Shown here: piece after piece, positions 4,873 through 27,717 of the stretch
Layout: each line of letters opens with the position of its first letter
Position numbering within the stretch: position 1 is the first letter of the stretch
DNA from: Pyrinomonadaceae bacterium
GTDB taxonomy: Bacteria > Acidobacteriota > Blastocatellia > Pyrinomonadales > Pyrinomonadaceae
Assembly: GCA_036380435.1 (NCBI GenBank)
Contig: DASVES010000154.1
Coordinates: 924 to 64,923 of the forward strand
Length of the DNA: 64,000 nucleotides
Reading direction: 5' to 3'
The notes under the pieces: generated by a model
Told to the model about the DNA's origin: nothing
Databases searched by the model: none
The model's input: the letters and a program-made list of their open reading frames with translations, nothing else
Made by a program: the position numbers and the translations under genes

Positions 4873-4873
4873 T

Positions 4874-4983: not shown

Positions 4984-4999
4984 CTCCTGCTGCCGTATT

Positions 5000-6377: not shown

Positions 6378-6454
6378 CGCCGGGCCGCGAACGCGCAGGG
6401 AAGTTAGTGACGGGCCGCGGAGACGTTGAAGCAAGCGACGACGAGCCGCGGAGC

Positions 6455-6640
6455 GGCGGCAGAATGTAGCCCCGGTCGTGAGACCGGGGTGGCAGCAGGA
6501 TGAAAAGATTTTAGCCCCGGAGGGGCGAAAGAACATTAACCTTGACGGTGGCCGATGTTGATGTTCTTTCGCCCCTCCGGGGCTTTCGTCTCTTTCGCAC
6601 CTGTTCCCACGGCTCGCGCCGTGGGCTACATTCTGCCGCC
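6455..6640. repeat. Multi-hairpin (cloverleaf-like) palindromic element, copy 1
   Basis: Outer stem ggcggcagaatgtagcc / ggctacattctgccgcc. Small hairpins ccccggtc-gtga-gaccgggg and cccacggc-tcgc-gccgtggg. Central stem agccccggaggggcgaaagaa / ttctttcgcccctccggggct. Confidence 0.9.
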
Positions 6641-6711
6641 GCCTTCGGCGGCTGGCATCGCGTTCCTCCCACGCGGTGCGTAACGCTTCTGTCGTCATCG
6701 TCGTTGGAAAC

Positions 6712-6742
6712 TTGAATCGCGCCGCCCGATGTGGAATAAAAT
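6712..6742 (+). promoter_or_regulatory. Candidate sigma70-type promoter for the 6771 gene
   Basis: TTGAAT 6712-6717, 17-nt spacer, AATAAA/TAAAAT at 6735-6742. This implies a transcription start after the ATG at 6729. Confidence 0.35.
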
Positions 6743-6770
6743 GGCGACAACCCTGAAAGGAGAATCACAC

Positions 6771-8054
6771 GTGAGTTCACGTCTCGCCCTCGCCTTCGCC
6801 GCCGCCTTGTCTTTCGCCGCCGCCCTCGCCTTCGCTGCGCCGGTCTTCGCCGACAACTGGCCGCAGTGGCGCGGCCCGGCGCTCAACGGCACGAGCGTCG
6901 AGCGGAACCTGCCTGTCAAGTGGGGGCCGGAGGAGAACGTCTCGTGGAAACTCCCGATGCCGGACGGCAGCGGCTCGACGCCGATTGTCTGGGACGAGCG
7001 TGTCTTCCTCAACGTCGCCGAGGGCGACGCGCTCGCGCTATGGTGCGTTGATAGATCGAAGGGCAGCGTCCTTTGGAAGCGCCCGCTCGGCGGCGGCAAC
7101 GAGCGGATGCGTAAGCACAACATGTCTTCGCCGTCGCCCGTGACCGACGGCCGCAGCGTCTACGTGATGACCGGCACGGGCCTCCTCAAAGCATTCGACT
7201 TCGCGGGCAAGGAACTCTGGTCGCGCGACATCCAGAAGGACTACGGACAGTTCGGACTCCAGTGGGGCTACGCCTCGTCGCCGCTCCTCCACGACGACGC
7301 GCTCTTCGTGCAGGTGCTCCACGGCATGAAGACCGACGAGCCGTCTTATGTCTTGCGCGTCGATAAGAAGACGGGTAAGACCCTGTGGCGCGTCGAGCGC
7401 CCGACGGCGGCCGTGCGCGAGTCGCCTGACGCGTACACGACGCCCGCGCTTCTGCGCCACGGTAAGACGTTTGAGATCGTCGTCACCGGCGGCGACGTGG
7501 TGACGGGCCACGACCCGGCGACGGGCAGGGAACTGTGGCGCGCCGGCGGTCTTAACCCCGACAACAACCCTTTCTACCGCATCGTCGCCTCGCCCATCGC
7601 CTTCGACGGAATCATCTACGCCCCGACGCGCGTCCGCCCCCTGCTCGCCATCCGCGCGGGCGGGCGCGGCGACGTGTCGAAGTCGCACCTGCTATGGTCA
7701 ACGGAGAACGGGCCGGACGTGCCGACGCCTGTCACCGACGGCAAATATTTCTACGTCGTTAACGACCGCGGCATCGTCTGGTGCCTCGACGCGAAGACCG
7801 GCAAGGAGGTCTACGGCGCGCAGCGCATCAAGTCGGGAACCTACAGCGCGTCGCCGGTGTTGGCCGACGGCAAAATCTACGCGACGAGCGAGGACGGCGT
7901 GACGACCGTCGTCAGGGCCGGGCCGCAGTTCGAGGTGCTGGCCGAGAACGACCTCAAGGAGCACACGCTCAGCTCGCCGGCCGTCTCCGACGGACAGCTC
8001 TTCCTGCGTACCTCGCAGAACCTCTACTGCATCGGCAAGCGGCAGAAGCAGTGA
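6771..8054 (+). CDS. Secreted BamB/PQQ-like beta-propeller repeat protein
   Basis: GTG 6771 with AAGGAG 7 nt upstream gives signal peptide [27 protein letters not shown], then [12 protein letters not shown]. The stop TGA 8052-8054 lies inside the AGCAGTG repeat arm. The track start at 6729 is less likely. Confidence 0.88.
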
Positions 8055-8330
8055 GCAGTGAGCAGTAATGAGCGCCGGAGGCGCGGAAGAAAGTAGCCAC
8101 GGGCGACCGTCCCGTGGAATAGCCGTAAATAAAAATTGAAAGCCCCGGAGGGGCGAAAGAATCTGAAGCCTGCCTGAAACGTGGCTTGAGGTTCTTTCGC
8201 CCCTCCGGGGCTTTGATCCTTTAATCGAACTCGTACCCACGGCTCACGCCGTGGGCTACATTCTTTCGCGCCTCCGGCGCTCGTTGACGCCCGTAGCTTA
8301 CCGCGCACCGCTCACTGCTTACTGCTCACT
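8047..8330. repeat. Multi-hairpin palindromic element, copy 2, enclosed by AGCAGTG heptamer arms
   Basis: Outer arms agcagtgagcagtgagcagtaatgagcg / cgctcactgcttactgctcact. Next layer gagcgccggaggcgcggaagaaagtagcc / ggctacattctttcgcgcctccggcgctc. The central stem has the same agccccggaggggcgaaagaa sequence as copies 1 and 3. Confidence 0.9.
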
Positions 8331-8332
8331 CT

Positions 8333-8782
8333 TCAAGACTGCGGCTTGAAGTAGAGGGCCATGCCGGCGCCGAGGGCGGCGAGGAGGAAGCCGACGTAGA
8401 CGAGCGGGTTGGGCGCTTGCTTCGGCGGGTGGAGGATCATCGAGACGATGACGTTGACGACGGGCGCGCCGGCGAAGACGAGCGGCATCACGTAGGTCGG
8501 CAGTCCGCCGTTGCGGAAGGCGTAGATGATGCAGACCGCGCCGACGGCGCCGAGGGCCCCGCCGGCCGTCGCCGCCGCCGACCCCTTCAGGTTGAAGCCG
8601 CCGAGCTGCCCCTGCGACCACAGGCTGATGACGGGCACGAGCACCCCGACCAGAAAGTACGCCACGCCCACACACAGCAGCGCCCGCATCGGGTTCTTCA
8701 ACTCCACCTGCCCCTGATGCAGTATCGGCCCGTACAAACCCCACGACAGCGCCGCGCCGAGCGCGAAGATTACCCAGAGCAT
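8333..8782 (-). CDS. Small integral membrane protein, EamA/DMT-like half-transporter
   Basis: 149 aa with about four hydrophobic helices (MLWVIFALGAALSWGLYGPIL…, C-terminal VYVGFLLAALGAGMALYF). High GC3 frame. The family call is tentative. Confidence 0.6.
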   Translation of the reverse strand: MLWVIFALGAALSWGLYGPILHQGQVELKNPMRALLCVGVAYFLVGVLVPVISLWSQGQLGGFNLKGSAAATAGGALGAVGAVCIIYAFRNGGLPTYVMPLVFAGAPVVNVIVSMILHPPKQAPNPLVYVGFLLAALGAGMALYFKPQS

Positions 8783-8801
8783 AGAAGACCTCTCGGAAGA
8801 A

Positions 8802-8921
8802 GGGAGTCAGGAGTCAGGAGTCAGGAGTCAGAATAAAAACCTCCGACCGCGCCGGTCTGTGGTAACACGGCGGCCGTCCGTCGTCAATCTTCTGACTCCT
8901 GTCTTCTGACTCCTGACTCCC
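8802..8921. repeat. GAGTCAG heptamer-arm hairpin, copy 1
   Basis: gggagtcaggagtcaggagtcaggagtcagaataaaaac ... cttctgactcctgtcttctgactcctgactccc, followed by ttttttat. Confidence 0.9.
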
Positions 8922-8928
8922 TTTTTTA

Positions 8929-11900
8929 TCAGAACACCAGCCGCAGCCCCAACTGAATCTGCCGCGACGAGGTGACGGTCGAGCGGACGCGCCCGAAGGT
9001 GGAGAGCGGAAGCTCGCCGTCGGTCGTGCCCGTGAAGGCGAGGAGGTTCGGCGGTGCGAAGTTTGCCCGGTTGAAGAGGTTGAACGCCTCGAAGCGAAGC
9101 TGGAGGACGGTGTTCTCGCCGAGCGCCGGCAGGCGCGTGTTCTTGACGGCCGAGAGGTCGAAGATTCTGAGGTTGGGGCCGATGAAGGTTCCGCGCCCGA
9201 GCGTGCCGAGCCGGCCGGCGCTCTGGAGCACGAAGGCGTCGGGGTTGAACCACTGTTCGGGCCGACCGAGCACGGCCGACTCGTGCGTGAAGCCGGGCGC
9301 GAGGCTCGGGCGGTCGAACCCCTGGCCGGGGCCGATGGAGGGCGACCACTGCGAGCGCGAGCGGTTGCGCTGGACGAAGACGGTCAGCGGGTTGCCCGAG
9401 CGCATCTGCCCGATGCCGGCGAGTTGCCAGCCGTCCAGAATCTTGCCGGCCGCGCCGCGCATCCCGCGCGCGAAGGGAAGCTCCCAGATGAAGTTGAGGA
9501 CGAAGTTGTGCTTGGCGTGGTAGTCGGCGAGGCCCTTGTTGTAGTTGAGGCCGGGGAACTCTGGGAAGGCCGTGGTGGTGCCGTTGGTGGCGTCGGAGAA
9601 GAAGGTCGATGCCTGCGTGGTGTCGATGTTGCGCGAGAAGGTGTAGGACGCTTGCGCGCTGAAGCCGCGGCTGAAGCGCTTGCGCGCCTCGAAGACGGCC
9701 GAGTTGTACCACGAGTTGCCGTCCGAGGACTTCAGCTCGATGGTCGTAAAAGCCGTGTTCGGCCGGAGCTGCCCCGTGGGGAAGAAGAGCGAGCCGTCGG
9801 CTTGCGTGACGGGCACAGGCGTGTTCACGTCGGAGCTACGCAGGAGGTGGACGCCGCGCGAGCCGGCGTAGCCGAGCGTGACGACGGTGTCGAACCACAG
9901 CTCGCGCTGGAGGTTCAGGTTCCACACTTGCAGGTACGGATTCTTCAGGTCGTACTGGATGGGCCGAATCGACTGCGACCCCACGGCGAACGAGGGAACG
10001 GGGAACGTCGGGTTGGCGATGATGGGCCGGGGCGTGGCCGGCGGGTTCGTCACCGTGACGATGAGGTTCTGCTGGTTGTTCGTGTTGAAGTAGACGCCGA
10101 AGCCGCCGCGCAGAGAGGTCTTCCCGTCGCCGAAGATGTCCCACGCGAAGCCGACGCGCGGGGAGAGGTTCTTGTGGGTCGGGTTCTGGTAGAGCTGCCC
10201 GGCGGTGGGCGTGCGATCCGTCAGGTTCGGCAAAGAAACGTCGCGCCCGCCGGTGTCGAGCGGCATGGTCGAGAACTCGTAGCGCAGGCCGGCGTTCAAG
10301 GTCAGGCGGTCGGTGACGCGGAAGGTGTCCTGCGCGTAGAGGCCGAAGAGGGTGAAGCGCCAGTAGCGGTCGAGCGCGCCGCCCGGAGAGATGCCGAGGA
10401 AGCGCGCCGGCGTGTTACGCAGGAAGTCGCGCAAAGAGTTGAAGGTGAAGACCCCGAGACTAAACGTCGGGTTGACCATGTTGTCCTGGTAACGCTCGGC
10501 GAGGCCGCCGACTTTAATCAAGTGGCGGCCGCGGCTGTGGACGAGGCCGTGCTCGAAGCCGAAGACGTTCTGGGTGAGCCGCAGGTTGGCGGAGGTCTGC
10601 GGGCCGAAGCGACCGGGGATGCCGCCGATGTCGATGCCGCCGACGAGGTCCTGACCCGGCACGAAGGGCGTCAAGGCTTGCGTCGTGTTCGACTCGACGT
10701 TCTGACCGACGCGCGTGCGGCCGAAGTTGAAGCGGAAGGTGTTGATGGTGTTGGCCGAGTGCGTGCGTCGGTACTCGCCCGTGAAGAACTGGTTGCGCGA
10801 AAGGAAGGTGCGCGGGAATTGCGGGAAGTCGGTCGGCAAGAGTTGGTCGGCGTCGTCGAAGGTGTAGCGGGCGAAGAACTGCTCGCGCTCGCTGCGGTTG
10901 TAGTCGATGCGCCCCTGAAAGAAGTGCTGGCGCACCTGCTGGTTGAAGCCGAAGACGTAGTCGGCGAGGTTGCCGCAGACGCGCGACGCGCCTGTGTTCG
11001 GCAGCGGGAACTCGTCGAGGTACGGCCTCACGGCGGCGCTCACGCCGACGAACTGGCGGTTCGGGCACGGCTGCCCTGCGGGCGCGACGGCCTGCGAGGT
11101 GGAGATAAAGCCTTCGCGCGCGTCGAGGTCGGGGACGATGGTGCGAACGGTGCGGCCGAGGTCTTCGCGCAGCGACTCGTATGCGCCGAAGAAGAAGAGT
11201 TTGTCGGTGCGGACGGGGCCGCCGATGGAGCCGCCGAACTGGTTGCGTCGAAACTCAGGCTTCTCCGCGCCGTCGAAGAAGTTACGCGCGTCGAGGTTGT
11301 CGTTGCGGTGGAACTCGTAGAGCGAGCCGTGAAACTCGTTCGTCCCCGACTTGGTGACGGCGTTGATCTGGCCGCCGAAGTTGCGGCCGAACTCGGCGCT
11401 ATAGGCGTTGGTCTCGATGCGAAACTCGCGGATGCTCTCGATGCCGAGCGAGGTGCCGGCGGCGCTGCCGGCGGGGCCGTTGGTGAAGTCGTTCTGCGGC
11501 GTGCCGTCGAGGAGATAGACGTTCGAGCGCGGGTCTTGTCCGTTGATGCTGGTGCCGAGGCCGTGGGCGACGACGGAGCCGCCGTCGCGGTGGGGGAAGG
11601 CGACGACGCCGGGCTGCAGGAGCGCGAGGTCGGTGTAGTTGCGACCGTTTAAGGGCAGCTCGCGGATGGCGCGCTCGCCGACGAGGTAGGAGAGTTCGGG
11701 CGTCTGCGTGTTGACGAGCGCCGTCTCGTCCGTGACGGTGATCGAGTCGGAGACGCCGGCCGCCTCCAGAGGGATGTTGAGCGTGGCCGTCTCGCCCACG
11801 GTGAGGCGCACGCGGTCGGCGACGTAGTTCTTAAAGCCTTCCTTCTCGGCGCTCACCTCGTAGGCGCCGACGGTGAGCGCGGGGAAGGTGAACAGCCCCT

Positions 11901-12135
11901 CATCGTCGCTCACGGTCTCGCGCTCAAGACCCGTCTCCAGACTCTTGGCGCGCACGCGCGCGCCGGCGACGACCGAGCCTTGCGCGTCGCGCACGTCGCC
12001 CGTCAGCGTACTCGTCGTCTGCGCGCTCGCCGCCGGGGCGAGACACAGCAGCAGGAGCAGCGCGGCGGCGGTCGTGTTGAAAAAGAAGGGGAGACGAAGA
12101 AAGGGCGCGGGAAAAAACCGTTGCGTGTGGTGCAT
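8929..12135 (-). CDS. TonB-dependent receptor with N-terminal carboxypeptidase-regulatory-like domain
   Basis: Signal peptide …[37 protein letters not shown] (CarboxypepD_reg), plug region, long beta-barrel, C-terminal [13 protein letters not shown] 12135 is preferred over the track start at 12198. Confidence 0.9.
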
Positions 12136-12239
12136 GACTGCCTTATGACTCCAGGTTGAACGGCGGACGAAACTGCCTGCCCGTTGACTGACGAACATTC
12201 TAACAGGCGGGTTCTGACATACATAAACGGCCCCGCCCC

Positions 12240-12314
12240 TTTTACAATCTTTTGACAGTTGCCGGCTGACTTTTACACGTCGTTTACAACAATCCCGCCC
12301 GATTCCGCGATAAT
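12240..12314 (+). promoter_or_regulatory. Two tandem copies of the bipartite TTTTACA motif plus GATAAT
   Basis: ttttacaatcttttgaca (12240-12257) and ttttacacgtcgtttaca (12271-12288). GATAAT at 12309-12314 lies 20 nt after the second TTTACA. Confidence 0.4.
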
Positions 12315-12374
12315 GCCTGAGCTATTTGAAAAGCCACGGTTGTCTGGCCGCGACAGCCGCGAGCGTCGTCACGC

Positions 12375-12467
12375 ACAGTACCGCGAGCGGAAGCCTCGCG
12401 GGTGCGGCCTGCGCTTAAGGCTCGCCTTGCGTGCGGCAGACCCGCTCGCTACCGCTCGCGGTACTGT
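12375..12467. repeat. ACAGTACCGCGAGCGG palindromic element, copy 2 (hybrid arms)
   Basis: The left arm is the ggaagcctcgcgggt variant and the right arm is the acccgctcgctacc variant, so only the outer 16 bp pair. It lies in a 5' region rather than a 3' region. Confidence 0.9.
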
Positions 12468-12571
12468 GGTTGTGTGGTTGCCCTCGCGTGGGCGGCGCGT
12501 TAAGGTTTGAATCTTCGTAGTACGTTTCGCCGTACATCCTGACGGGCGAAGATTCGGAGCCTTCAACACCC

Positions 12572-12976
12572 ATGACCTTCATCTCCGTGACGCGTTTGCG
12601 ATTGCGCTCGGTGCGCTATCTGCCGCCGTTTCTGTGGCACACGCTCAGGAGTCTCCTTCAGGCGAAGCGCGCGCCCGGAAACGCCAGTGCGAAGACGAAG
12701 CGCGCCGCCGACGGCGCCTACTGGACGCTGACGGCGTGGGACACGGCAGCCGCGATGCGCGCCTACCGAAATTCTGGCGCGCACAAGCGGGCGATGCCGA
12801 AACTCCTCGAATGGTGCGACGAGGCTTCAGTCGGCCATTGGGAGCAGGCGTCTGATGAGCTGCCCGACTGGCGCGTGGCGCACCGGCGCATGATCGAGAC
12901 GGGCAGGCTCTCGAAGGTCAATCATCCGTCCGAGAGACAGAGGGCGGGCGAGATGCCCGCGCCGGAAAACATTTAA
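12572..12976 (+). CDS. Small ABM/DUF3291-like (ferredoxin-fold) protein of unknown function
   Basis: MTFISVTRLRLRSVRYLPPF…YWTLTAWDTAAAMRAYRNSGAHKRAMPKLLEWCDEASVGHW resembles a recurrent monooxygenase-like family. Recognised from memory only. Confidence 0.55.
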   Translation: MTFISVTRLRLRSVRYLPPFLWHTLRSLLQAKRAPGNASAKTKRAADGAYWTLTAWDTAAAMRAYRNSGAHKRAMPKLLEWCDEASVGHWEQASDELPDWRVAHRRMIETGRLSKVNHPSERQRAGEMPAPENI

Positions 12977-13002
12977 GCCGAGATTAAATCGGGAGATCAC
13001 TC

Positions 13003-16000
13003 GTGAAGATAAAAGCCCCAGTCGCCGCCATCCTGCTGCTCGCATTCGCTGCCTCCGCCTTCGCGCAGACGCACCGCGCCACCGTCCGCGGCGCCGTCAC
13101 CGACCCAAACGGCGCCGTCGTCCCCGGCGCGGTAGTGAAAATCATTAACAGGGAGACCCGCGAGTCTCGCGAGACCGCGGCTGGTGAGAGCGGGGAGTAT
13201 GCGGTTTCCTCGCTCGCGCCGGGCTTGTACGAACTGACTGTGGAAACCGCGGGCTTCCCCAAATTCACGCAGAAACTCTCCCTTTATGTGAATCAGGAGT
13301 TGCGTGTCGATGTCATCATGGCGACCCCGACGCTTGATGCGGCCTATGTCGATGTCGAGACGCAGGAGGAGCTGAAAAAAGATTCGGCGGCCATCAGCAC
13401 GGTCATCGAAAATCGGCAGGTCGAAAATCTGCCGCTCGACGGCCGCAACTTCTTCGAGCTGGCTCTGCTCGTCCCCGGCGCCGTGCCGGCCGCGCCCGGC
13501 TCCGCCGGCTCGGTGCGCGGCGACTTCTCCTTCAGCGTCAACGGCGCGCGCGAGGACGCCAACAACTTCCTCCTCGACGGCGTCTACAACCTCGACCCCA
13601 AGCTCAACACCTTCGGCGTGCGCCCGCCCGTCGATGCCATCCGCGAGTTCGAGATGGCCACCTCGACCTACGACGCCTCGTTCGGACGCAACCCCGGCGC
13701 GCAGGTCAACGTCGTCACCAAGAGCGGCACGAATGACTTTCACGGCTCGCTCTACGAGTTCCACCGCAACGCACAGTTCGACGCGCGCAACTACTTCGCG
13801 CCCGCCGGCGAAGGTAAGCCCAAGTACATTCGCAACCAGTTCGGCGGCTCTCTCGGCGGCCCCCTGCGCCGCGACCGCACCTTCTTCTTCGCCGACTACG
13901 AGGGCACGCGCGCGCGCGAAGGCGTCACGCGCGTCACCAACGTGCCCACGGCGCAAGAGCGCGCGGGCGATTTCTCGCAGAGCATCTTCGGCATCCCGAC
14001 GAATCCGTTCACGGGCCAGCCGTTCGAGGGCGGGCGCCTCCCCGACTTCTTCATCCACCCCGTAGGCCGCCGGATCGCCGCTTTGTATCCGCTGCCGAAC
14101 CGCAACGTAGCGTTCCAGAACTTCGTCTCTTCGCCCACTCAGCGCGACGATCAGAACAGCTTCGACGTGCGCCTCGACCACGCCTTCAACGACGCGTCGC
14201 ACTTTGTCGCCCGCTACAGCTTCGGCGAGCGCGACCTCTTCGAGCCGTTCACGGGGCCGACCCTCGCGCTCGTCCCCGGCTTCGGCGACGACGTTCGCCG
14301 CCGCAGCCAGAACCTGATGCTCGGCGAGACGCACGTCTTCACCCCGCGCTTCGTCAACGAGGCGCGCGTCGCCTTCAGCCGCGTCGCCTCCTCGGTCACG
14401 CAGGAGGCGAGCGTCCTCAACACAGACGTGGGCCTGCCCTTCGTCTCGACGCGCGCGCGCGATGCGGGCTTGAGCTTCATCACCGTCACCGGCTTCTCGC
14501 CGCTCGGCGACGAGGGCAACAACCCGCAGCAGAGCGTGACGAACGTCTATCAGGTGCTCGACACCGCGACTTATGCGCGCGGCCGGCACCTCGTGAAGTT
14601 CGGCGCTGATCTGCGCTTCACACAGCAGAACGCCTTCCGCGACGTGGAGTCGCGAGGCCGCCTCCAGTTCTCGCCCTTCTTCCCGTTCACCGGAAACGCG
14701 CTGGCCGATCTCCTCCTCGGCTTCCCGCTTTTGACGAGCGTCGCCCGCGTCGATAACCCGCAGCAACTCCGCACGCAGAGCTACAACTTTTTCATTGACG
14801 ATAGCTGGCGCGTCACCCCGCGCCTGACCATCAACGCCGGTCTGCGTTACGAATACAACACGCCGCCCGTGGACGCCGAGGATCGCTCCAACGTCTACGA
14901 CTTCTCGACGGGCACGCTCGCCCGCGTCGGCACGAACGGCATCCCGCGCGGCGGCTATGAGGCCGACAAAAACAATTTCGCGCCGCGTGTCGGGCTGGCG
15001 TGGACGGTCGGAGAAGACGGCGAGACGGTCGTGCGCGCCGGCTACGGCGTCTATTACGATCAGTCGCCGCTCGCGCCCGGCGAGGCGCTCTACTTCAACT
15101 CGCCCTACTTCGACAACAACATCTTCTTCTCCCTGCCGGGGCTGCCGCTCACCCTGAGCGACCCGTTCCCCGCCTTCTTCCCCTTCCCGCTTCCCGACTC
15201 GGCGCTCGCCATCCAGCGCGACCTCCGCACCGGCTACATGCAGCACTGGAACCTGAACGTCCAGCGGCAACTCGGACGCAGCCGCGTCGTCGAGCTGGCC
15301 TACGTCGGCTCGAAGGGCACGAAACTTCTGACGGCGCGCGACATCAACCAGCCTCTTCCGTCGGTGCTTCCGCCGGGCCTGCCCTTCGTCCCGCGCCCCA
15401 ACCCGCGCTTCGACGACATCAGCACTCTGGAGTCGCGCGCCTCGTCCAACTACCACAGCCTTCAGGCGCGCTTCCAGCAGCGCCTCTCGCAAGGGTTGTC
15501 GATGCTCGCCTCCTACACCTTCGCGAAGTCTCTGGACGACGCTTCTAACTTTTTCTCCAGCGCCGGCGACGCAAACTTCCCGCAGAACTCCAACAATCCG
15601 CGCGCCGAACGCGGGCGCTCGAACTTCGACGTGCGCCACCGTCTCTCCGTCTCCTACGCCTACGACCTGCCCTTCGGACGCGGCCGCCGCTTCGCCGCTG
15701 ACTCCGGCCTGCTCACCACGCTGCTCTCCGGCTGGCAGACCTTCGGCATCGTCACCCTGCAATCAGGACGGCCCTTCACGGTCGCCATCCTGCCCGAGCT
15801 GGACGTGAGCGGCACGGGACGCTCCATCCTCGGCTTCGGCGCGGGCGACCGGCCCCAAGTCGTCGGCGACCCGCGCTTGTCTACCCCGACGCCCGAGCGT
15901 TGGTTCAACACCTCGGCCTTCTCCTTCCCGGCGCCCGGCACGTTCGGCAACGCGGGCCGCAACGTCCTCGACGGGCCGGGCTACCAGAACGTCAACGCCT

Positions 16001-16185
16001 CGCTCGTCAAGAACACCGCGCTCGGCGAACGTCTCAGACTGCAACTGCGCGCGGAGGTCTTCAACCTCTTCAACCACCCGAACTTCAACCTGCCCGACAA
16101 CTTCGTCGGCTCGCCCACCTTTGGGCGCATCACGTCGGCGCGCGACCCGCGCCACATCCAGTTCGGGGCGAAGCTGCTGTTCTGA
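13003..16185 (+). CDS. TonB-dependent receptor with N-terminal carboxypeptidase-regulatory-like domain
   Basis: GTG start, signal peptide [44 protein letters not shown], plug and barrel, C-terminal [10 protein letters not shown]. Confidence 0.9.
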
Positions 16186-16204
16186 GAGAGCGTCAAGGAG
16201 ACAT

Positions 16205-16876
16205 ATGAGCAACAAGATCGTCGTTCCGCGCAGGGAGTTTTTGCTGGCGGGCGCGGCGGCCGTCCCACTCCTCGGCGTCGCGGCCTCTCGCATGAAGCAG
16301 GGCGTCGTTGTCGAGCCGCTGGCGGCCAACGACGCTTCCGCCGCGGCCGAGACGTGTCGTCTCACGGAGGAGAGCCAGTACGGCCCCTTCTATCGCGAGG
16401 GCGCACCGTGGCGCGCGAAATTCTGCGGCTTGGAGGAGCCGGGCGAGCGGCTCACAATCGCGGGCCGCGTGACGGCCGCCGACAACTGCCAGCCGCTCAA
16501 AGACGCCGTCCTCGACGTGTGGCACGCGAGCGCCGCCGGCTTCTACGACAACAACGACCCGGCGCGCCCTTTCGACCCCGCGCGCTATCATCTGCGCGGC
16601 CGCGTCCGCACGGACTCGGACGGCCGCTACCAGTTCGAGACCGTCCTGCCCGGCAACTACGGACAGGGCCGCTTCATGCGCGCCAAGCACATCCACCTGC
16701 TCGTCACCTGCGCCGGCCGCGCGCCGCTCGTCACCGAAATCTACTTCGCTGGCGACAAGCACAACGACACCGACGGCCTCGTCCGCCGCTCACTCATCAC
16801 GCAGTTGTCGGGCGCCGCCCGCGAGAAGGACGCCGCTCCACAGCGCGGCACGTTCGACATCACTCTGGGGAAGTGA
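16205..16876 (+). CDS. Intradiol ring-cleavage dioxygenase-like protein with Tat-type leader
   Basis: MSNKIVVPRREFLLAGAAAVPLLG. Core YGPFYREGAP…LDVWHASAAGFYD…RGRVRTDSDGRYQFETVLPGNY…RAKHIHLLV. Stop TGA 16874-16876 lies inside the GTGATAA arm. Confidence 0.8.
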   Translation: MSNKIVVPRREFLLAGAAAVPLLGVAASRMKQGVVVEPLAANDASAAAETCRLTEESQYGPFYREGAPWRAKFCGLEEPGERLTIAGRVTAADNCQPLKDAVLDVWHASAAGFYDNNDPARPFDPARYHLRGRVRTDSDGRYQFETVLPGNYGQGRFMRAKHIHLLVTCAGRAPLVTEIYFAGDKHNDTDGLVRRSLITQLSGAAREKDAAPQRGTFDITLGK

Positions 16877-16946
16877 TAAGTGATGAGTGATAAGTGATAA
16901 GAAAGAACTGCCTCTCTTTCTTATCACTTATCACTCATCACTTATC
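16873..16946. repeat. GTGATAA heptamer-arm hairpin, copy 1
   Basis: gtgataagtgatgagtgataagtgataagaaaga ... tctttcttatcacttatcactcatcacttatc. TGA at 16874, 16881 and 16888 covers all three frames. Confidence 0.92.
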
Positions 16947-16962
16947 CCTCCCAGAGGTGTTC

Positions 16963-17388
16963 ATGGTCAACGGTTTCTTCGACTTCTTCAGGCGGCGCGC
17001 CGAGTACGGCCCCGTCTTTATCCGCCTCGTCGTGGGCTGGATGCTCATCTGGGGCACGCAGGACAACGTCCTCAGTTGGGAGCGGATGCTGGAGTTCGCG
17101 AAGTTCTTAGGCGAGCGCGGCACGCCCTTCCCGCTGTTCGCGGCGCACCTCTCGGTCTACACGCAGCTCATCTGCGGGGTTCTCATACTGCTCGGCGCGG
17201 CCGTGCGCGCGGCGGCCGTCCCGCTCATCATCAACTTCATCGCCGCCATCCTCATCGCGCACCTCGGCGACACCTTTGCGGGCGCCTTCCCCGCGCTCGT
17301 CATGCTGGCGTCCGCCCTCTTCTTCCTCTTCCACGGGGCGGGCAAGCTCTCGGTCGATGAAGCATTGGAGCGGCGCGGGCCGGCGTGA
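16963..17388 (+). CDS. DoxX family membrane protein
   Basis: MVNGFFDFFRRRAEYGPVFIRLVVGWMLIWGTQDNV… with four hydrophobic helices. The ATG at 16963 avoids reading through the hairpin. Confidence 0.8.
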   Translation: MVNGFFDFFRRRAEYGPVFIRLVVGWMLIWGTQDNVLSWERMLEFAKFLGERGTPFPLFAAHLSVYTQLICGVLILLGAAVRAAAVPLIINFIAAILIAHLGDTFAGAFPALVMLASALFFLFHGAGKLSVDEALERRGPA

Positions 17389-17395
17389 TTGATGA

Positions 17396-17486
17396 ACAGT
17401 ACCGCGAGCGGTAGCGAGCGGGTGTGGACACGCGACGCGAGCCTTCAGCGCAGGCCGCACCCGCTCGCTACCGCTCGCGGTACTGT
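17396..17486. repeat. ACAGTACCGCGAGCGG palindromic element, copy 3
   Basis: Perfect 28-nt arms acagtaccgcgagcggtagcgagcgggt / acccgctcgctaccgctcgcggtactgt. The loop is the reverse complement of the copy 1 loop type. Confidence 0.95.
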
Positions 17487-17579
17487 CCGCTACGAGCGGC
17501 GCGACGAAGCACTTCGCCACGCGGGAAATCGTCCGGCAGCGAGTTGAAAGCATGTGCGTGGATTTCATCGGCCGCACGC

Positions 17580-18230
17580 TTAGGAGTTCGAGGGCATCAC
17601 GTAGAGAATCACGGCGAGGTAGTGGCAGACGCTGCCGGCGAGGACGAAGAGGTGCCAGATGGCGTGATTGTGGCGGATACGGTCGCAGGCGAAGAAGAAG
17701 ACGCCCGTGGTGTAGGCGAGGCCGCCCGCGATGATGAGCAGGATTGCCCCGGCCGGCACCAGCTCGTAGATCGGCTTGACGGCGACGACGGCCAGCCAGC
17801 CCATCAACAGATAGGAGCCGAGGGTCGCCGCCTTGAAGCGTTCGCCGAACATCACCGTGACGGTGATGCCGGACAGGGCGAGCGCCCACACGAGTGCGAA
17901 GAGCGTCCAGCCCCAGCCGCCGCGCAGCGTGACGAGTGTGAAGGGCGTGTAGGTGCCCGCGATGAGCAGGTAGATGCAGCACTTGTCGAAGATTCGCAGG
18001 GCGTCCTTGGTGCGCGGGTGTCGCGCCGCGTGATAGAGCGTCGAGGCCGTGTAGAGGGCTACCAGCGACGCGCCGTAGACGCCGCCGCTGACGAGGTGTA
18101 GCGTCCCGCCGCGCGTGGCCGCCAGAAGGATCAGCGCCGCCAAGCCGACCAGACTCAGCCCCAGCCCCACGCCGTGCGTGACGCAGTTCGCCAACTCCTC
18201 GATGCTCAGCCTTTCTCTCGCCGTCTTCAT
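17580..18230 (-). CDS. Hemolysin III / PAQR family membrane protein
   Basis: MKTARERLSIEELANCVTHGVGLGLSL…STLYHA…IYLLIAGTYTPF…HAIWHLFVLAGSVCH, the typical PAQR His motifs. Confidence 0.88.
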   Translation of the reverse strand: MKTARERLSIEELANCVTHGVGLGLSLVGLAALILLAATRGGTLHLVSGGVYGASLVALYTASTLYHAARHPRTKDALRIFDKCCIYLLIAGTYTPFTLVTLRGGWGWTLFALVWALALSGITVTVMFGERFKAATLGSYLLMGWLAVVAVKPIYELVPAGAILLIIAGGLAYTTGVFFFACDRIRHNHAIWHLFVLAGSVCHYLAVILYVMPSNS

Positions 18231-18386
18231 CTCGCAACTCTTTCGTCCTGACGCGCAAAGACTCGCGCCGCCGCCGCCTTCAACACTTCGGCCCATGCTA
18301 ACGCCGTCGAGACTCGGAAGACAATACCGAGATGCGCGCGGGCGCGTTGGAGGACGCGCTACGGCCTCCGCGGCCGACCGATGATC

Positions 18387-18779
18387 CTATTTTTTCCGGT
18401 TGAGGATGGCGGAAGCCGACACGTCCGACGCCCCGCGATGTGAGTATCTGAAGGCGACTTGCCGGCGGCTTAATTTTTCGACGACCACGCGGCCTCTGTC
18501 CGCGCAAGCCTCCCGGTTGCGCGTGATGCGCTCCCGAAACGTGGCCCGCCGGGAGTTGATGCTCAGAAGCCTCCACTCCCCGCCGCAGTCGAGCGAAGGG
18601 TATTCGATCAAAAATTTCCGGCCCCGCGCCGTGAGCACCATCGTCCACGTGCTGTCGGTGTCCATCTGATAGCCTGTGCCCTCCCACCTGCCGCCGAGCC
18701 ACGCACCATTCCTGTTTTGCGGCAGAGCGACGACGCTCAGAGAGAAGAACAGGCAGAGGGCCGCCACAGTCCTGAGCAT
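18387..18779 (-). CDS. Secreted hypothetical protein
   Basis: Signal peptide MLRTVAALCLFFSLSVVALPQ. No recognisable domain. The region is visibly less GC-rich than its surroundings. Confidence 0.6.
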   Translation of the reverse strand: MLRTVAALCLFFSLSVVALPQNRNGAWLGGRWEGTGYQMDTDSTWTMVLTARGRKFLIEYPSLDCGGEWRLLSINSRRATFRERITRNREACADRGRVVVEKLSRRQVAFRYSHRGASDVSASAILNRKK

Positions 18780-18892
18780 TATTCAATGCCTCCGAAGGGT
18801 TGTGATTGATGGTCGAGCTTAATTATAGCCCTGTGCGAAGGGGGGCGTTCGTCCGCGCGCCGGGCTGGAGAGAACACGGATGAGACGGCCGT

Positions 18893-19816
18893 CTAACTCG
18901 CGGTCGGCTCCAAAGACTTGTTCGGCGCCGGACTGCCCAGAGGGGAAGTGACATGCGCCGGCGGCGTCCGCAAGTCCCACACGACTCCCACCCACGAAAG
19001 CATGCGGAGCGTGTAGTGGGCCATGTCGATCTCCCACCAGTAGAAGCCCTGTCGCTCCGAGGACGGGTAGTGATGGTGATTGTTGTGCCAGCCCTCGCCG
19101 AGCGTGATGAGGGCGACGAAGAGATTGTTCCGGCTGTCGTCTTTGGTCTCGAAGCGGCGGCTGCCGAAGAGGTGGGCCAGAGAGTTGACCGTGAACGTGC
19201 CGTGGTAGAGCAGCACCGTGCTGATGAAGAATCCCCAGACGAGCATCTGCCAGCCCGAAGTGCCCAAACTCGGATAGTAGCGTTCGAGCGCCGCCCCCAG
19301 TAGAAAGGTGGCCCCGGCCAGTATGATGGGCGGCAGCGCGTAGAAACGATTGAGCAGGCGCAGGTCGCGGAACTTCATCAGGTTGGAGACGAGCGGCGCA
19401 TCAGTCGTCCGGCTCTCGCGCGACATGAACCAGCCGACGTGTGAGCGCCACACGCTGCGGGAGACCGGCGAGTGGAAATCGTCATCGGTGTCGGCGTAGA
19501 GATGATGGCGGCGGTGATGTGCGGCCCACCACAGCGGCCCCTTCTGGTAGGCGGCCGTCCCCGCGAAGGCCATCAGGAATTGAAAGACGCGGCCGGTCTT
19601 GTACGAGCGGTGCGCGAGGAGCCGATGGAACCCGGCCGTGATCGCAAACATCCGCACGACGTAGAGCGCCACGCAGACGGCGACGGCCACCGCGCTCACG
19701 CCCGTCCAGACGGCGAGCAGGCAGGCCGCGTGCATCAGGAAAAACTGGATGCAGACGGAGTAGTCAAGATTTTCCCGGTCGAGACGGCGCGGATTGTGAA
19801 GAATGGATTCGGACAT
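18893..19816 (-). CDS. Acyl-CoA/acyl-lipid delta-9-type fatty acid desaturase
   Basis: Three His boxes: HRLLAHRSY, HHRRHH, HNNHHHYP. ATG 19816 is preferred because the candidate promoter overlaps the track start at 19846. Confidence 0.88.
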   Translation of the reverse strand: MSESILHNPRRLDRENLDYSVCIQFFLMHAACLLAVWTGVSAVAVAVCVALYVVRMFAITAGFHRLLAHRSYKTGRVFQFLMAFAGTAAYQKGPLWWAAHHRRHHLYADTDDDFHSPVSRSVWRSHVGWFMSRESRTTDAPLVSNLMKFRDLRLLNRFYALPPIILAGATFLLGAALERYYPSLGTSGWQMLVWGFFISTVLLYHGTFTVNSLAHLFGSRRFETKDDSRNNLFVALITLGEGWHNNHHHYPSSERQGFYWWEIDMAHYTLRMLSWVGVVWDLRTPPAHVTSPLGSPAPNKSLEPTAS

Positions 19817-19848
19817 TAACCAACCTTGTTCCCTGTAAGATGTCATCC

Positions 19849-19876
19849 ACTATAAAGTGTATTTTCCCTATTGCAA
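19849..19876 (-). promoter_or_regulatory. Candidate sigma70-type promoter for the desaturase
   Basis: On the minus strand, TTGCAA, 16 nt, TATAGT. Confidence 0.45.
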
Positions 19877-19933
19877 CTCCCGGCCGGCGCAGACCGCACA
19901 GTTGGCATTCACATTTTGCGGTATCGATGAAAG

Positions 19934-20719
19934 CTACCCGTCCATGACGATGCCAAAATGCTCGCGCAGCGCCGCGTCATACTCTTCCTTACTCGAAAGC
20001 GTTTGCTCCCGTCGCTCGCCGTCGAGAGAGGTCGTGATGAGACGCATCTCGCTCAGTGTGACGCGCCCTTCGCCGGACGAGCGCGTGCAGATGCGCCCCT
20101 TGGTGAAGTGCGACTGAGGGGAAGTCTGGTGATAGCGGCACATCTCTTCAAAGTCGGCAAATTCGTGGCGACGCAGGCTGAAGCGATACTGCGGGTTCCA
20201 TTCGCCGTCGCCGTCGCGTTGCATCAGACGGAAGTGGTCGCCGTCGGGGACGATGCGGTAGGCCCGGCTCCCCTGTACCTGCTCGCCGCGCGCGTCGAGC
20301 AGCAACGGCTCACGGAACGAATCGCCGAAGCCCACGTCCACGAGCCAACGCTCTTCCAGATCAACCAGCAGCGTCATGTGGTCGAAGTCGGGGCCGAAGC
20401 CGCCTTCCGCATTCGCGACCCCGGCCGAGAGCATCGAAACGTTGAAGCCCAGGGCACGCAGTAGCACGCAGAACAGGCCGTTGGCTTCGTAGCAGAAGCC
20501 GCCGCGCCGACGTCGGACGATTTTCGTGAACAGGGCCTCGTCATCAAGAACGATGGACTGCCCGGCGTGAATACTCAGATTCTCAAAAGGCACCGCCGAC
20601 AGGTGCGCCAACTGCAACGCGCGCAGGGTCTCGGCGGTAGGCGCTATCGAGTATTGATGATTGATGCGGTCGAGATAAGCCTCGATGCGAGCGCTGTTCA
20701 AGGAAAGCCTGCCCTTCAA
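19934..20719 (-). CDS. Arylamine N-acetyltransferase
   Basis: LRALQLAHLSAVPFENLSIH…RRRGGFCYEANGLF (catalytic Cys context). The length is typical for NAT. Confidence 0.88.
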   Translation of the reverse strand: MKGRLSLNSARIEAYLDRINHQYSIAPTAETLRALQLAHLSAVPFENLSIHAGQSIVLDDEALFTKIVRRRRGGFCYEANGLFCVLLRALGFNVSMLSAGVANAEGGFGPDFDHMTLLVDLEERWLVDVGFGDSFREPLLLDARGEQVQGSRAYRIVPDGDHFRLMQRDGDGEWNPQYRFSLRRHEFADFEEMCRYHQTSPQSHFTKGRICTRSSGEGRVTLSEMRLITTSLDGERREQTLSSKEEYDAALREHFGIVMDG

Positions 20720-22361: not shown

Positions 22362-22378
22362 CCTGAGGGAGTTTTCAA

Positions 22379-22470
22379 ACAGTACCGCGAGCGGTAGCGA
22401 GCGGGTCTCGCGTGTGCGGTGCAGGCCGCTCATCATGGCCGCACCCGCTCGCTACCGCTCGCGGTACTGT
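22379..22470. repeat. ACAGTACCGCGAGCGG palindromic element, copy 4
   Basis: Perfect 28-nt arms, 18 nt after the upstream stop. Confidence 0.95.
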
Positions 22471-22535
22471 TGCCGATGACGGCGACGCGTCGGGCGGCGG
22501 GCGTTGTAGCGTCGCCATCAGACGCACGACGTTTC

Positions 22536-24234: not shown

Positions 24235-24334
24235 TTCTCTGCGCGTCCTCGGCGTCCTCCGCGGCTCGGCGGTGAATCACGGCTGAAGGCCACTCACCGC
24301 AGAGTCGCCGAGGACGCCGAGGACGCGCAGAGAA
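24235..24334. repeat. CACCGCAGAG-family hairpin with CGAGGACGC repeats
   Basis: 25-bp perfect stem ttctctgcgcgtcctcggcgtcctc (24235-24259) / gaggacgccgaggacgcgcagagaa (24310-24334). Inner ggcggtgaat … actcaccgc. Confidence 0.9.
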
Positions 24335-24466: not shown

Positions 24467-25990
24467 TCAGTCGGAGAGCTTGAAGGCGGCCATCTCGTTG
24501 GCGTTGCGGACGAGGAGGCGGCCGTCGGCAATGACGGGGACGTTCCACGTCTTGCCCTCGACGGCCTTGAAGCGCGCGACCTCCGTGTGCGCCGCGGGAG
24601 TGGCGCGCACGAGGACGACATCGCCCTCCTCGGTCGTGACGATGAGGTGTCCGCTGGCGAAGATCACCTGCCCGTAGCCGTAGCGCCCGCCCTTCCACTT
24701 GCGCTCGCCCGTGTTCACGTCGATGCAGGCCATGATGCTCTCGTCGAACCCGTAGACGTGGCCGTCGTGATAGACGGGGCTGTTGAACTTGGCCTTGAGC
24801 GACGTGTTCTCCCAGACGGCGCGCGCCGTGTAGGTGTTGCCGGAGCCGGCCACCTCGACGAGCGCCGAACCCTTGCCGTAGCCGGAGGAGATGAAGACGC
24901 GGTTGGCCGCGACGACGATGGGCTGCGAGACGTTGATGCCGTAGCCGTTCGACCACGGGTGCTCCCACAACACCGCGCCGTCCTCGGGCGCGAGGCCCGC
25001 GAGGCGGCGCGCCGTGACGACGACGATCTGCCGCCGGCCGGCGAGCGTCGTGAGCACCGGCGACGTGTACGACGCCTGATCGCTCATCGAGTTCCAGACG
25101 CGCGCGCCCGTCATCTTGTTGTAGGCGACGACCGTCTTGCCGGAGGTTCCGCCCGGCATCACGATCACCTTGTCGTCAACGATCAAGGGCGCGGCCGCCT
25201 GCCCCCACTGGATGTTCTGCGCGCCGTTGTCGGAGAGGATGTTCTTCGACCAGATGGCGCGGCCCGTCTTCGCGTCGAGACAGCGAAACTCGCCGGTGGC
25301 CCCGAGGGCGTAGAGGCGTCCGTCGTCGAAGGTGGGCGTGGAGCGCGGGCCGTCGCCGGTGTCGTCGGGGCTGAAGGTGGCGTTCCAGGCGTTCGTCCAC
25401 AGCTCGCGGCCCGTCGAGGCGTTGTAGGCGGCGACGACTTCCTGACCGCGCCGCTGCTCGATGGTGTAGGCCGTGCCGTCGGCGACGACGAAGGAGGCGT
25501 AGCCGCCGCCCACGGGCTGCTTCCAAAGGAGCTGTAACCCTTCGGCGGGCCAGCTCGTCTTCACCTGCCGCTCTTCATAGCGGCCGTCGCGCGAGGGGCC
25601 GCGGAAGTTAGTCCAGTAGCGACGACCGCCGCCGGCGGCTCCGGCCGCGGGCGCCGTGGCCGCGCCGGCCGCCGTGGCGGGCTGCTCGCCCGCGGGCGCG
25701 CCCGGTTGCGCCGCCGCGCCTTCCACCGCGGGCTGGCCCTCGACGGGCGCAGCCGCCGCTGCCTGTTCGGCCGGGGCTGCCTGCGTGCCGTCGGTCGCGG
25801 CTTGCTGTTGCTGCGCGGCGCGGTGGCGTTCGAGTTCGTCGTAGTGCGCCTGCGAGCCGGGCGCGCCGCCCCGCGTGGCAAAGAAGTAAGCGGCGACGGC
25901 CGCGAGAGCGACGACGGAGACGAGCGCGATGATGACGGGCGGGCGTCGATACCAGGGCGCGGGCTTGTTGAAGGACTCTTCGCTCAGCAT
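24467..25990 (-). CDS. Membrane-anchored BamB/PQQ-like beta-propeller repeat protein with Ala/Gln-rich linker
   Basis: N-terminal TM helix PPVIIALVSVVALAAVAAYFF, low-complexity linker, then YWTNFRGPSRDG and propeller blades. Confidence 0.88.
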   Translation of the reverse strand: MLSEESFNKPAPWYRRPPVIIALVSVVALAAVAAYFFATRGGAPGSQAHYDELERHRAAQQQQAATDGTQAAPAEQAAAAAPVEGQPAVEGAAAQPGAPAGEQPATAAGAATAPAAGAAGGGRRYWTNFRGPSRDGRYEERQVKTSWPAEGLQLLWKQPVGGGYASFVVADGTAYTIEQRRGQEVVAAYNASTGRELWTNAWNATFSPDDTGDGPRSTPTFDDGRLYALGATGEFRCLDAKTGRAIWSKNILSDNGAQNIQWGQAAAPLIVDDKVIVMPGGTSGKTVVAYNKMTGARVWNSMSDQASYTSPVLTTLAGRRQIVVVTARRLAGLAPEDGAVLWEHPWSNGYGINVSQPIVVAANRVFISSGYGKGSALVEVAGSGNTYTARAVWENTSLKAKFNSPVYHDGHVYGFDESIMACIDVNTGERKWKGGRYGYGQVIFASGHLIVTTEEGDVVLVRATPAAHTEVARFKAVEGKTWNVPVIADGRLLVRNANEMAAFKLSD

Positions 25991-26022
25991 TTTAAATTCC
26001 CTCCGATTACGAGCAAGGACTA

Positions 26023-26113
26023 ACAGTACCGCGAGCGGTAGCGAGCGGGTGCGCCTGCGGCGAAAGTCTCGCCCCGCGCACGCTGACCCGCTCGCTACCG
26101 CTCGCGGTACTGT
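26023..26113. repeat. ACAGTACCGCGAGCGG palindromic element, copy 5
   Basis: Perfect 28-nt arms, between two minus-strand propeller genes. Confidence 0.95.
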
Positions 26114-26132
26114 TTTTCATTTCATCCTTGCC

Positions 26133-27479
<1,347 letters not shown>

Positions 27480-27580: not shown

Positions 27581-27717
27581 ACTCACCGCAGAGGCGCAGA
27601 GGACGCGGGGAAGCAAGGATGAAGGATGAAGGATGAAGGATGAGGGGAAGACGACCTGTCTTTTTTCATCCTTCATCCTTCATCCTTCATCCTTGCCTCT
27701 GCGCCTCTGCGGTGAAT
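27581..27717. repeat. Composite hairpin: CACCGCAGAGGCGCAGAGG outer arms plus GGATGAA heptamer inner arms
   Basis: actcaccgcagaggcgcagagg…caaggatgaaggatgaaggatgaaggatga / ttcatccttcatccttcatccttcatccttgcctctgcgcctctgcggtgaat. Confidence 0.92.

Follow-up and report, generated by a model that had tools for sequence, protein, structure and literature searches.

In Xanthomonas, GGGAATC heptamers form convergent inverted pairs, of which 70-75 occur per genome (Rehm et al. 2015, PMC4692102), and STRR heptamers have been recorded from Nostoc and Calothrix (Mazel 1990, as cited in PMC4692102). The Xanthomonas pairs and the cyanobacterial STRR are the closest architectural precedent for the hairpins treated here, which have arms of tandem heptamers such as GTGATAA and lie in a stretch of 64,000 nucleotides (66% G+C) from a Pyrinomonadaceae bacterium (assembly GCA_036380435.1, contig DASVES010000154.1, positions 924 to 64,923; "the window" in the following). 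We consider it likely that these hairpins are copies of small, non-autonomous palindromic repeat elements that have proliferated in Pyrinomonadaceae, Acidobacteria of the soil, and they are best read as a superfamily with microsatellite arms, similar to MITEs (transposable elements of miniature size with inverted repeats), REP sequences and the palindromic elements of Rickettsia (RPE). The copies are located where two genes meet or within loops of further hairpins, and a few lie in frame in linkers or signal peptides. In the searchable literature we found no account of such repeats from Acidobacteria or Blastocatellia.

The heptamers of Xanthomonas and of the STRR type are intergenic tandem repeats, often arranged as opposite-strand arrays able to form a stem-loop, and related strains have the same type of repeat with varying numbers of units (PMC4692102); the arrays described here are likewise tandem heptamers, mainly intergenic and variable in copy number. 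However, those genomes belong to a different phylum and carry one G-rich, quadruplex-prone heptamer each, whereas we find dozens of families with a defined spacer and loop, nesting, in-frame copies and insertion polymorphism, and the units GTGATAA, GGAGTCA and AGCAGTG are without G-runs. The TAACTGA repeats of Beggiatoaceae, cyanobacteria and Bacteroidetes are also comparable, as they are intergenic, contain two stop triplets, lie a few nt from start codons and are scattered across phyla (MacGregor 2015, PMC4679880); related units (AACTGAC, CAACTGA) occur in our comparison set. These repeats form 169 direct sets against one inverted set (PMC4679880), while the inverted hairpin arrangement is the rule here. 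In most genomes heptanucleotides are the most frequent class of long simple repeat, an abundance for which polymerase slippage has been proposed (Mrazek 2007, as summarised in PMC4679880). The dominance of heptamers and the function of the STRR and Xanthomonas pairs are questions dating from 1990-2007, and the dozens of sister families in Pyrinomonadaceae, with their clear differences in presence, their nesting and their insertions into coding sequence, make origin, spread and effect of such repeats comparable across many species.

Among dispersed palindromes, REP/REPIN sequences are similarly short, extragenic, present in tens to hundreds of copies, arranged as hairpin doublets and free of target-site duplications (Bertels & Rainey 2011, PMC3116915); they are non-autonomous and thought to move as single-stranded hairpins (PMC3116915). 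By contrast, REP arms are imperfect palindromes with a GT[AG]G head and a flanking RAYT gene (PMC3116915), whereas the arms observed here are tandem heptamers, not palindromic in themselves, instead of units of 20-40 nt with a 5' GT[AG]G head. The Rickettsia RPE are palindromic repeats inserted in frame and translated (PMC10969869), to which the hairpin at 3407-3499 of the window and the arms encoding signal peptides may be compared, but they measure about 100-150 bp, are without tandem short units and are mostly intragenic, in contrast to the prevalence of gene junctions here. The pneumococcal BOX, RUP and SPRITE repeats are also small and structured, cluster and insert into one another (PMC10969869). 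None of them has microsatellite arms, and SPRITE, a dispersed repeat resembling a rho-independent terminator (PMC10969869), has the canonical GC stem and U-tract that most elements here are missing. We do not assign the elements to the MITE, REP or intrinsic terminator families, because target-site duplication, the GT[AG]G palindromic unit and the operon-end position were not found and most copies have no U-tract.

The GTGATAA family and its probable spread

The canonical copy occupies positions 16873-16946 and is composed of GTGATAA GTGATGA GTGATAA GTGATAA GAAAGAA, an 8-nt loop and the exact mirror, in which TCATCAC pairs opposite the variant unit GTGATGA. Its stem is extended by the flanks CTCTGGG (16863-16869) and CCCAGAG (16951-16957). 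As RNA, this copy folds at -65.2 kcal/mol (z -11.6), and the folding energies of the heptamer hairpins of the window lie between -43.9 and -104.7 kcal/mol; compared with dinucleotide shuffles, their z-scores are between -8.6 and -16.4, far beyond chance. Rfam, searched at gathering and E-value thresholds, yielded no family for the hairpins and returned Acido-Lenti-1 hits only, located elsewhere in the window; at 16800-17010 just sub-threshold matches to generic miRNA-precursor hairpins appeared.

One exact 20-mer of this element, GTGATAAGTGATAAGAAAGA, yielded at least 120 matches in metagenome contigs, and 25 copies or more come from a single assembly (Ga0193747), whose contigs reach 649 kb. 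The family consensus is A-GTGATAA-GTGATGA-GTGATAA-GTGATAA-GAAAGA, followed by loop and mirror. Among the matches listed, to which all counts of metagenome copies below refer, the mirrored arm is present in 110 of 121, the modal length is 75-88 nt, and the unit order of 16873-16946 (TAA-TGA-TAA-TAA) recurs exactly in 42 of 109. Loops are alike within one genome (GAGATTnGCTTTTCTC) and unlike between genomes, and the loop subfamily of the two GTGATAA copies in the window was found again at three metagenome loci (L152, L183 and L185; loci are cited by our numbers). Since the unit order is conserved and the loop subfamilies are genome-specific, the copies are, as far as can be judged from their sequences, a product of inheritance by copying and not of convergent design. 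Each heptamer type forms a family of many dispersed copies, in which the order of units is conserved and the loops are specific to subfamilies, and whose elements measure about 45-160 nt (mostly 75-88 nt) and are non-coding; in being shorter than 300 bp, multi-copy and bounded by terminal inverted repeats they agree with MITEs.

Both GTGATAA copies of the window are, by comparison with related loci, lineage-specific insertions. The copy at 16873-16946 lies between a Dioxygenase_C gene (Pfam; 16205-16876, plus strand), whose stop TGA at 16874-16876 is supplied by the element, and a DoxX gene (Pfam; 16963-17388, plus strand), which starts 16 nt past the element and whose Shine-Dalgarno (SD) sequence (AGAGG) partly overlaps the outer stem. 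The dioxygenase ends in ..DITLGK* in the window and in ..DISLAKAS* in its closest homologues (81-87% identity), and the element is absent after the dioxygenase stop in three of three relatives with DNA (L201, L202, L204). In L201 the doxX start is the same (ATGGTCAACGG) and found 170 nt downstream; synteny around the dioxygenase was uninformative in L203 and L204.

The second copy (41200-41270, 71 nt) folds at -43.9 kcal/mol and has a loop of the same subfamily (GAAAGAAtyTGyCTTCTCTTATC). It separates a DUF3311 gene (41251-41481, minus strand) from a sodium:solute symporter gene (39547-41181, minus strand) immediately downstream. With the symporter as query we retrieved 80 related loci (81-87% identity), all from metagenome-assembled genomes of Pyrinomonadaceae/Acidobacteriota, which together with the window make up our comparison set (1.33 Mb). 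In 80 of these 80 related species the junction has no hairpin and the two genes overlap as TTGA (..AAGGAGGACGCGCGTTGA..). In the window, the C-terminal tail of DUF3311 is replaced, and the open reading frame (ORF) enters the arm and reads five of its codons (..ARKVISDK*) before the first in-frame TGA. The original prediction had preferred selection on a common design over the spread of a mobile element; the dispersed families, their subfamily loops and these two lineage-specific insertions argue for the contrary.

A purely local origin, in which arms expand in place by slippage and a fold-back template switch supplies the second arm without any movement, appears very improbable to us as an alternative. 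Differences in unit number and long arrays do show active slippage: unit numbers are unequal between the arms of one copy (e.g., L093, L157), and L121 and L192, which are orthologous, do not have the same unit content. Mirrored unit variants, such as GTGATGA/TCATCAC in the window and AGGGCGG/CCGCCCT in L041, fit template switching, and neither a target-site duplication around the listed copies nor a transposase among the 30 window proteins was found. Nevertheless, more than 100 loci share one four-unit order, the GAAAGA spacer and genome-specific loop subfamilies, which rules out their independent local origin, and the same families recur as inner elements of unrelated loops. In the mobile-element reading, the arms would evolve as microsatellites by replication slippage, a process with a known preference for heptamers in many bacteria, so that unit numbers differ between arms and copies, and arm complementarity would be kept through common descent together with intrastrand template switching and/or selection for pairing. 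Arm mismatch within a copy is slightly, yet significantly, below the mismatch between copies, and in L009 a change is found on one arm only. An unpaired array, (AGGCAGT)x16.6 at 11100-11215 of L035, is by far the longest heptamer array that we observed, and expansion is thus not confined to hairpin arms.

The GCTGTTA family, present in the window at 52604-52771, is nested in GTGATAA loops of metagenomes (L164, L172, L159, L145), where AAAACTG, GTCCAAAG, CCGTGAA and GGTGAAT arrays were found as well; most of the 26 enlarged loops hold other heptamer arrays, and eight contain strict inner inverted repeats. The GTGATAA copies L096 and L150 themselves sit within GGTGACA hairpins.

No direct repeat of 2-6 nt exceeded the shuffled expectation at any offset around the listed copies, so that target-site duplication was not detected, and the termini are A...T (A-GTGAT...ATCAC-T) in 77 of 110 and 76 of 110 copies. 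An all-against-all BLAST of 1,310 ORFs near the 121 listed copies found no recurrent neighbour protein within 2.5 kb, just orthologous housekeeping genes, and neither a transposase nor a RAYT is among the 30 window proteins (Pfam). In L104, where two copies lie near each other, the gene that they enclose was read by eye, without a family search, as a signal peptidase I and not as a transposase. By analogy with REP/REPIN-RAYT or IS200/IS605 systems, mobilisation would happen in trans, by a putative enzyme that most plausibly acts on single-stranded DNA hairpins, which would fit both the targeting of loops and the absence of duplications.

Every hairpin of the original prediction is present where it had been placed, and its period of seven was considered a shared feature of six unrelated heptamers. 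Perfect tandem arrays with 2.6 or more copies were counted in the comparison set, and we found 25 of period 6, 71 of period 7, 14 of period 8, eight of period 9 and one of period 10. Of these, 42 arrays of period 7 and 12 of period 8 have an inverted partner not more than 400 nt away, and none of periods 6 and 9 has one. A periodicity-blind scan for inverted repeats in the same sequences recovered 210 long hairpins, 37 of them with periodic arms (30 of period 7, five of period 8, one each of periods 9 and 10). Period 7 is accordingly dominant but not exclusive, and periods of 8 to 10 nt are also present in the window (27583-27715, 35473-35564, 24235-24334 and 4874-4983). Neither are the six heptamers clearly unrelated, because mixed arrays join several of them by single-base steps. 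One such chain leads from GTGATAA over GTGATGA and GGGATGA to AGGATGA, another from AGCAGTG over AGCAGTC to AGGAGTC, with GCAGTCA, the first unit at 48092, as an example. The comparison set contains many further heptamers, among them AGGGATG, CAGTAGC, GGTCAGT, CAGTTTT, GGTCTTT and AAAATGC.

Stop codons, gene junctions and transcript ends

The suggestion that heptamer arms place a stop codon in every frame is borne out at the positions named for it (TGA at 16874, 16881 and 16888; TGA at 8052 and 8059 with TAA at 8066), which fall in three different frames. In GTGATAA-type 5' arms these stops are also used, in the dioxygenase and DUF3311 genes and, among the listed copies, in 45 of the 84 gene 3' ends that face an element. 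The element-internal stops fall in three registers, which correspond to heptamers one, two and three of the arm, and 71 of the 84 stops lie within -26 to +20 nt of the element edge. We regard the all-frame stop as a real consequence in some families, because an ORF whose gene end has been replaced by an element is terminated by whichever stop of the arm comes first in frame, and not as a design common to all. It probably filters which insertions survive, namely those that end the upstream ORF fast or stay in frame.

The stronger interpretation, i.e., selected bidirectional intrinsic terminators with arms designed for a stop in every frame from either side, is improbable in our opinion. It can draw on the arms of GTGATAA, AGCAGTG and AAGGATG, which stop all three frames, and on the stops used inside elements. 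Across 21 heptamer families (clustered at <=1 mismatch) a stop is present on either arm in 16, against 12.8 expected from composition-preserving shuffles (P=0.045). The 5' arm by itself, however, carries a stop in 12 of 21 families against 9.9 +/- 1.7 expected (P=0.18) and the 3' arm in seven against 5.5 (P=0.24), so that an enrichment of stops across designs was not recovered. The arms of octamer families and the 5' arms of GGAGTCA contain no stops at all, and several stop-free arrays as well as the hairpin at 3407-3499 are translated in frame.

The gene contexts of the copies are likewise difficult to reconcile with designed terminators. By a longest-ORF rule, 68 of 85 listed copies lie between co-directional, eight between convergent and nine between divergent genes, and several of those in divergent contexts have neighbouring ORFs that are 700-2,600 nt long. 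Downstream starts follow at a median of 17 nt from the element, 59 of 86 within 30 nt. The elements fill short gene junctions and show no specific marking of 3' ends, since downstream starts are equally close as upstream stops. The nine copies in divergent promoter regions would suit another explanation, in which the arrays are iteron-like 7-bp binding sites at the DNA level for a dimeric regulator or nucleoid protein and the palindrome reflects dimer symmetry; inverted repeats of short motifs are indeed typical of operator and iteron arrays. We find this hardly credible given dozens of different heptamers under one architecture, copies inside ORFs and at gene 3' ends, variable unit numbers and flanking genes without a common function. 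Readings as CRISPR, attC or iterons were dropped, as spacers and associated genes are missing and the unit sequences are numerous and unrelated.

For most copies a role in termination finds no support. A terminator consensus scan of positions 1-20000 of the window returned 21 sites, no enrichment over the 15.9 +/- 4.3 in shuffles, and none of them is a heptamer hairpin. The copies at 16873, 41200, 27613 and 29152 have no U-tract. Two GGAGTCA elements speak in favour of terminators. The one at 48085-48183 (first unit GCAGTCA, -70.8 kcal/mol) has an A-run and a T-run as flanks and is, to judge from its sequence, the most terminator-like of the copies. The other, at 8800-8923 (-83 kcal/mol), contains a GC hairpin and U-run in the right orientation within its 56-nt loop. 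These two sites partly fit the GC-rich stem and U-tract of an intrinsic terminator, and they alone; the position at operon ends, conserved together with the gene, was not observed. On the contrary, the elements are recent insertions and not conserved gene ends, and the copy at 41200-41270 splits a conserved, translationally coupled operon pair. Two of the three outcomes that the original prediction had named as speaking against it were consequently obtained, as neither an enrichment at gene 3' ends nor an excess of stop codons is apparent.

Inside the 8800-8923 loop, TTTTTATT follows a short stem rich in G+C (8845-8857, minus strand) in canonical terminator shape, and the stem with its T-run is oriented for the upstream TonB-receptor gene. 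Relative to transcription, the asymmetric spacer has its two orientations in 41 versus 27 cases, a bias too weak to interpret. A split SD and AUG bridged by the hairpin was also considered and rejected, being inseparable from the purine-rich 5' flank of the element; in both window copies an ordinary SD is found downstream of the stem.

These junctions are of consequence for annotation, because the elements set the stops of many genes, add length to linkers and signal peptides and interrupt the junctions of operons. Programs that call genes or predict terminators will misread heptamer-armed elements.

Copies in coding sequence and at PQQ genes

The hairpin at 3407-3499 (plus strand; GGGGAAGG/GTAAAGG, period 7/14) lies in frame in an ORF for an FtsX/MacB-type permease (1102-4872), in a variable linker that precedes a transmembrane (TM) helix. 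Homologues of the permease align on either side (..RSLLAG / VGQVAGFFGGG..) with a variable insert between, and G+C at third codon positions drops to 0.64 in the insert, where TAA triplets are confined to the two non-coding frames. In this in-frame insertion between conserved protein flanks the copy agrees with the RPE, while most other copies are extragenic. The purine-rich arm is translated as KPEGGRSKGEGVKAGG and the pyrimidine-rich arm as KLLPFTLYPLPLALL, which leads into the TM helix. Low-complexity inserts were also seen in two permease homologues, as GKREKGEEGKREE..FPFSPFRLLTFSP in P0048 and as a 7-aa periodic SPRLPVS in P0049.

The genes of the window have an acidobacterial look, with CarboxypepD_reg/TonB receptors and many PQQ_2 beta-propellers (Pfam) among them. 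Seven PQQ_2 paralogues occur within the 64 kb (6771-8054, 24467-25990, 26133-27479, 27745-29133, 30601-32805, 33893-35431 and 36908-38038), and most of the heptamer hairpins of the window flank them. A long-range AGCAGTG hairpin (33852-33992, plus strand) spans the start of the PQQ_2 gene 33893-35431. Its 5' arm (33852-33873) holds the stop of a methyltransferase gene (TGA 33857), its loop the ribosome-binding site, the ATG (33893) and the n-region, and its 3' arm (33965-33992) encodes LLLTAHGSLP of the signal peptide. Orthologous hairpins with other CAG-type heptamers were found at the 5' end of the gene in nine related loci (L001, L004, L005, L015, L020, L021, L048, L051, L073), for instance at L001 19707-19890, L048 19480-19627, L021 18686-18820 and L015 19453-19715. 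The hairpin at this start is kept across species, and its heptamer (AGCAGTG, GCAGAAG, CAGTAGC and others) changes in concert on both arms.

A different pattern is displayed by the spacer between this PQQ gene and the following Fe-ADH gene (35431-35627), which in the window contains a CGCAGAG-type hairpin with a period of 8-9 nt (35473-35564). Compared with about 30 orthologous spacers, it is 9-70 nt long and empty in about ten species, and elsewhere occupied by hairpins of at least four families, often from the stop codon onwards (TGA|GCCACA.., TAG|CCACA..), which indicates a rapid turnover. The hairpins at this place comprise CGCAAAGG, GCCACAAAAGGCACAA, whose ends (TTAGCCACA...TGTGGCTAA) are conserved, and the palindrome GGAGTGCGCC...

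The retention of hairpins at PQQ starts, with its concerted unit change, bears on the possibility that the elements have been domesticated as cis-acting RNA, which might serve as RNase III sites, as protectors of 3' ends or as bridges between stop and start for translational coupling. From the sequences we consider such a role possible though not probable; it would come on top of an origin as mobile elements and is compatible with it. Stems that measure 24-50 bp and fold at -44 to -105 kcal/mol, stops in the first heptamers, starts at the short median distance past the stem given above, and an ancestrally overlapping stop/start pair that tolerates insertion are all in agreement with it. Less compatible are the occurrence of the same elements in divergent spacers and in frame in ORFs and the orthologous spacers that are empty in many species, and the start-codon calls behind these distances are crude. 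On the mRNA, the elements form very stable stems, which might shield 3' ends, might be cleaved by RNase III or, in a few copies, might serve as terminators.

Several points weigh against the reading of the hairpins as proliferated mobile elements. Some hairpins, such as the AGGGCGG/CCGCCCT hairpin of L041 and the hairpin at the PQQ start, persist at orthologous sites in species with 73-84% protein identity, with changes mirrored on both arms, and this persistence could indicate functional constraint instead of selfish persistence. We infer the exact junctions and the act of transposition from sequence comparison, because no clean pair of empty and filled sites among near-identical strains is available: look-ups of the exact DoxX and DUF3311 proteins of the window, made in search of such strains, found none on record, and the flanks of both window GTGATAA copies are rearranged and not simply interrupted. 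A mobilising enzyme was found neither among the 30 window proteins nor among the neighbours of the 121 listed copies. The metagenome copies were sampled by a single exact 20-mer, the rule by which their gene contexts were assigned is crude, and the preference for period 7 over 5, 8 or 10 is explained solely through a slippage bias of a general kind, itself unproven.

Nine orthologues of the PQQ gene 33893-35431 (L006, L032, L038, L049, L052, L061, L064, L071, L078) possess stop-free arrays in frame (CAGTTTT, CAGTTGG, GAGTCCG, CAGAAGT), located between the ancestral ATGA start and the core of the signal peptide. As the gain or loss of one unit shifts the frame, a possible phase variation of the secreted protein is suggested, which, if true, would act in a free-living soil bacterium. 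If the asymmetry of the arms yields signal-peptide-like segments or phase-variable starts, selfish DNA would have a route to shape secreted proteins. A far-reaching version of the mobile-element reading, which we think rather unlikely, would unite these observations in a self-propagating class of hairpins with microsatellite arms. A putative structure-specific machinery would move them without duplication into loops and stop/start junctions. Purine-rich 5' and pyrimidine-rich 3' arms would be compatible with translation, either stopping all frames at gene ends or encoding a charged-then-hydrophobic lead-in to signal peptides or TM helices, and the arrays at PQQ 5' ends would act as +/-7-nt phase switches.

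Further hairpins and repeats of the window

The third GGAGTCA element (29152-29241, -63.9 kcal/mol) lies between an Ank-repeat gene, which stops at 29241, and a PQQ_2 gene, which starts at 29133. A composite structure is formed at 27583-27715, where an outer hairpin with arms of two CGCAGAGG octamers encloses a hairpin of four AAGGATG units (27613-27696), one base step from the AGGGATG and GTGATGA types; the whole folds at -104.7 kcal/mol, and the outer element belongs to a superfamily of CGCAGAGG, CGCAAAGG and CACAGAG units. A direct array of about three CGCAGAGG-type units at 36811-36845 has no inverted partner nearby and may be half an element.

The hairpin at 52604-52771, with degenerate GCTGTTA/AGCTAAC units, is situated between an ORF of 129 aa and ctaA. 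At 4874-4983, just downstream of the permease gene, arms of 9-nt period contain hexamers of sigma-70-like type (TTAACA-17-TAGGAT), placed symmetrically on the two strands.

Another, separate family of REP-like repeats has arms of 28-32 nt, ACAGTACCGCGAGCGGTAGCGAGCGGGT, which in one copy reach 45 nt, and loops of about 17-53 nt, mostly 27-36. Its six copies in the 64 kb are all intergenic (12374-12468, 17396-17486, 22378-22471, 26015-26121, 38850-38941 and 55474-55567).

AGCAGTG arms at 8047-8074 and 8306-8330 delimit a structure between convergent genes (8047-8330), in which the TGA of the upstream gene (8052) falls into the arm and about 230 nt of nested palindromes are enclosed, i.e., an Acido-Lenti-1 pair and an inner hairpin (8139-8214). 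The five Rfam hits to Acido-Lenti-1 (RF01687) are inverted pairs around an inner GC-rich hairpin (AGCCCCGGAGGGGCGAAAGAA..), and form palindromic repeats of about 210 nt, three of which are present in the window (6444-6653, about 8075-8304 and 38063-38274), one of them in the loop of the AGCAGTG hairpin. The Acido-Lenti-1 "sRNA" motif thus looks like the arm of a MITE-like repeat.

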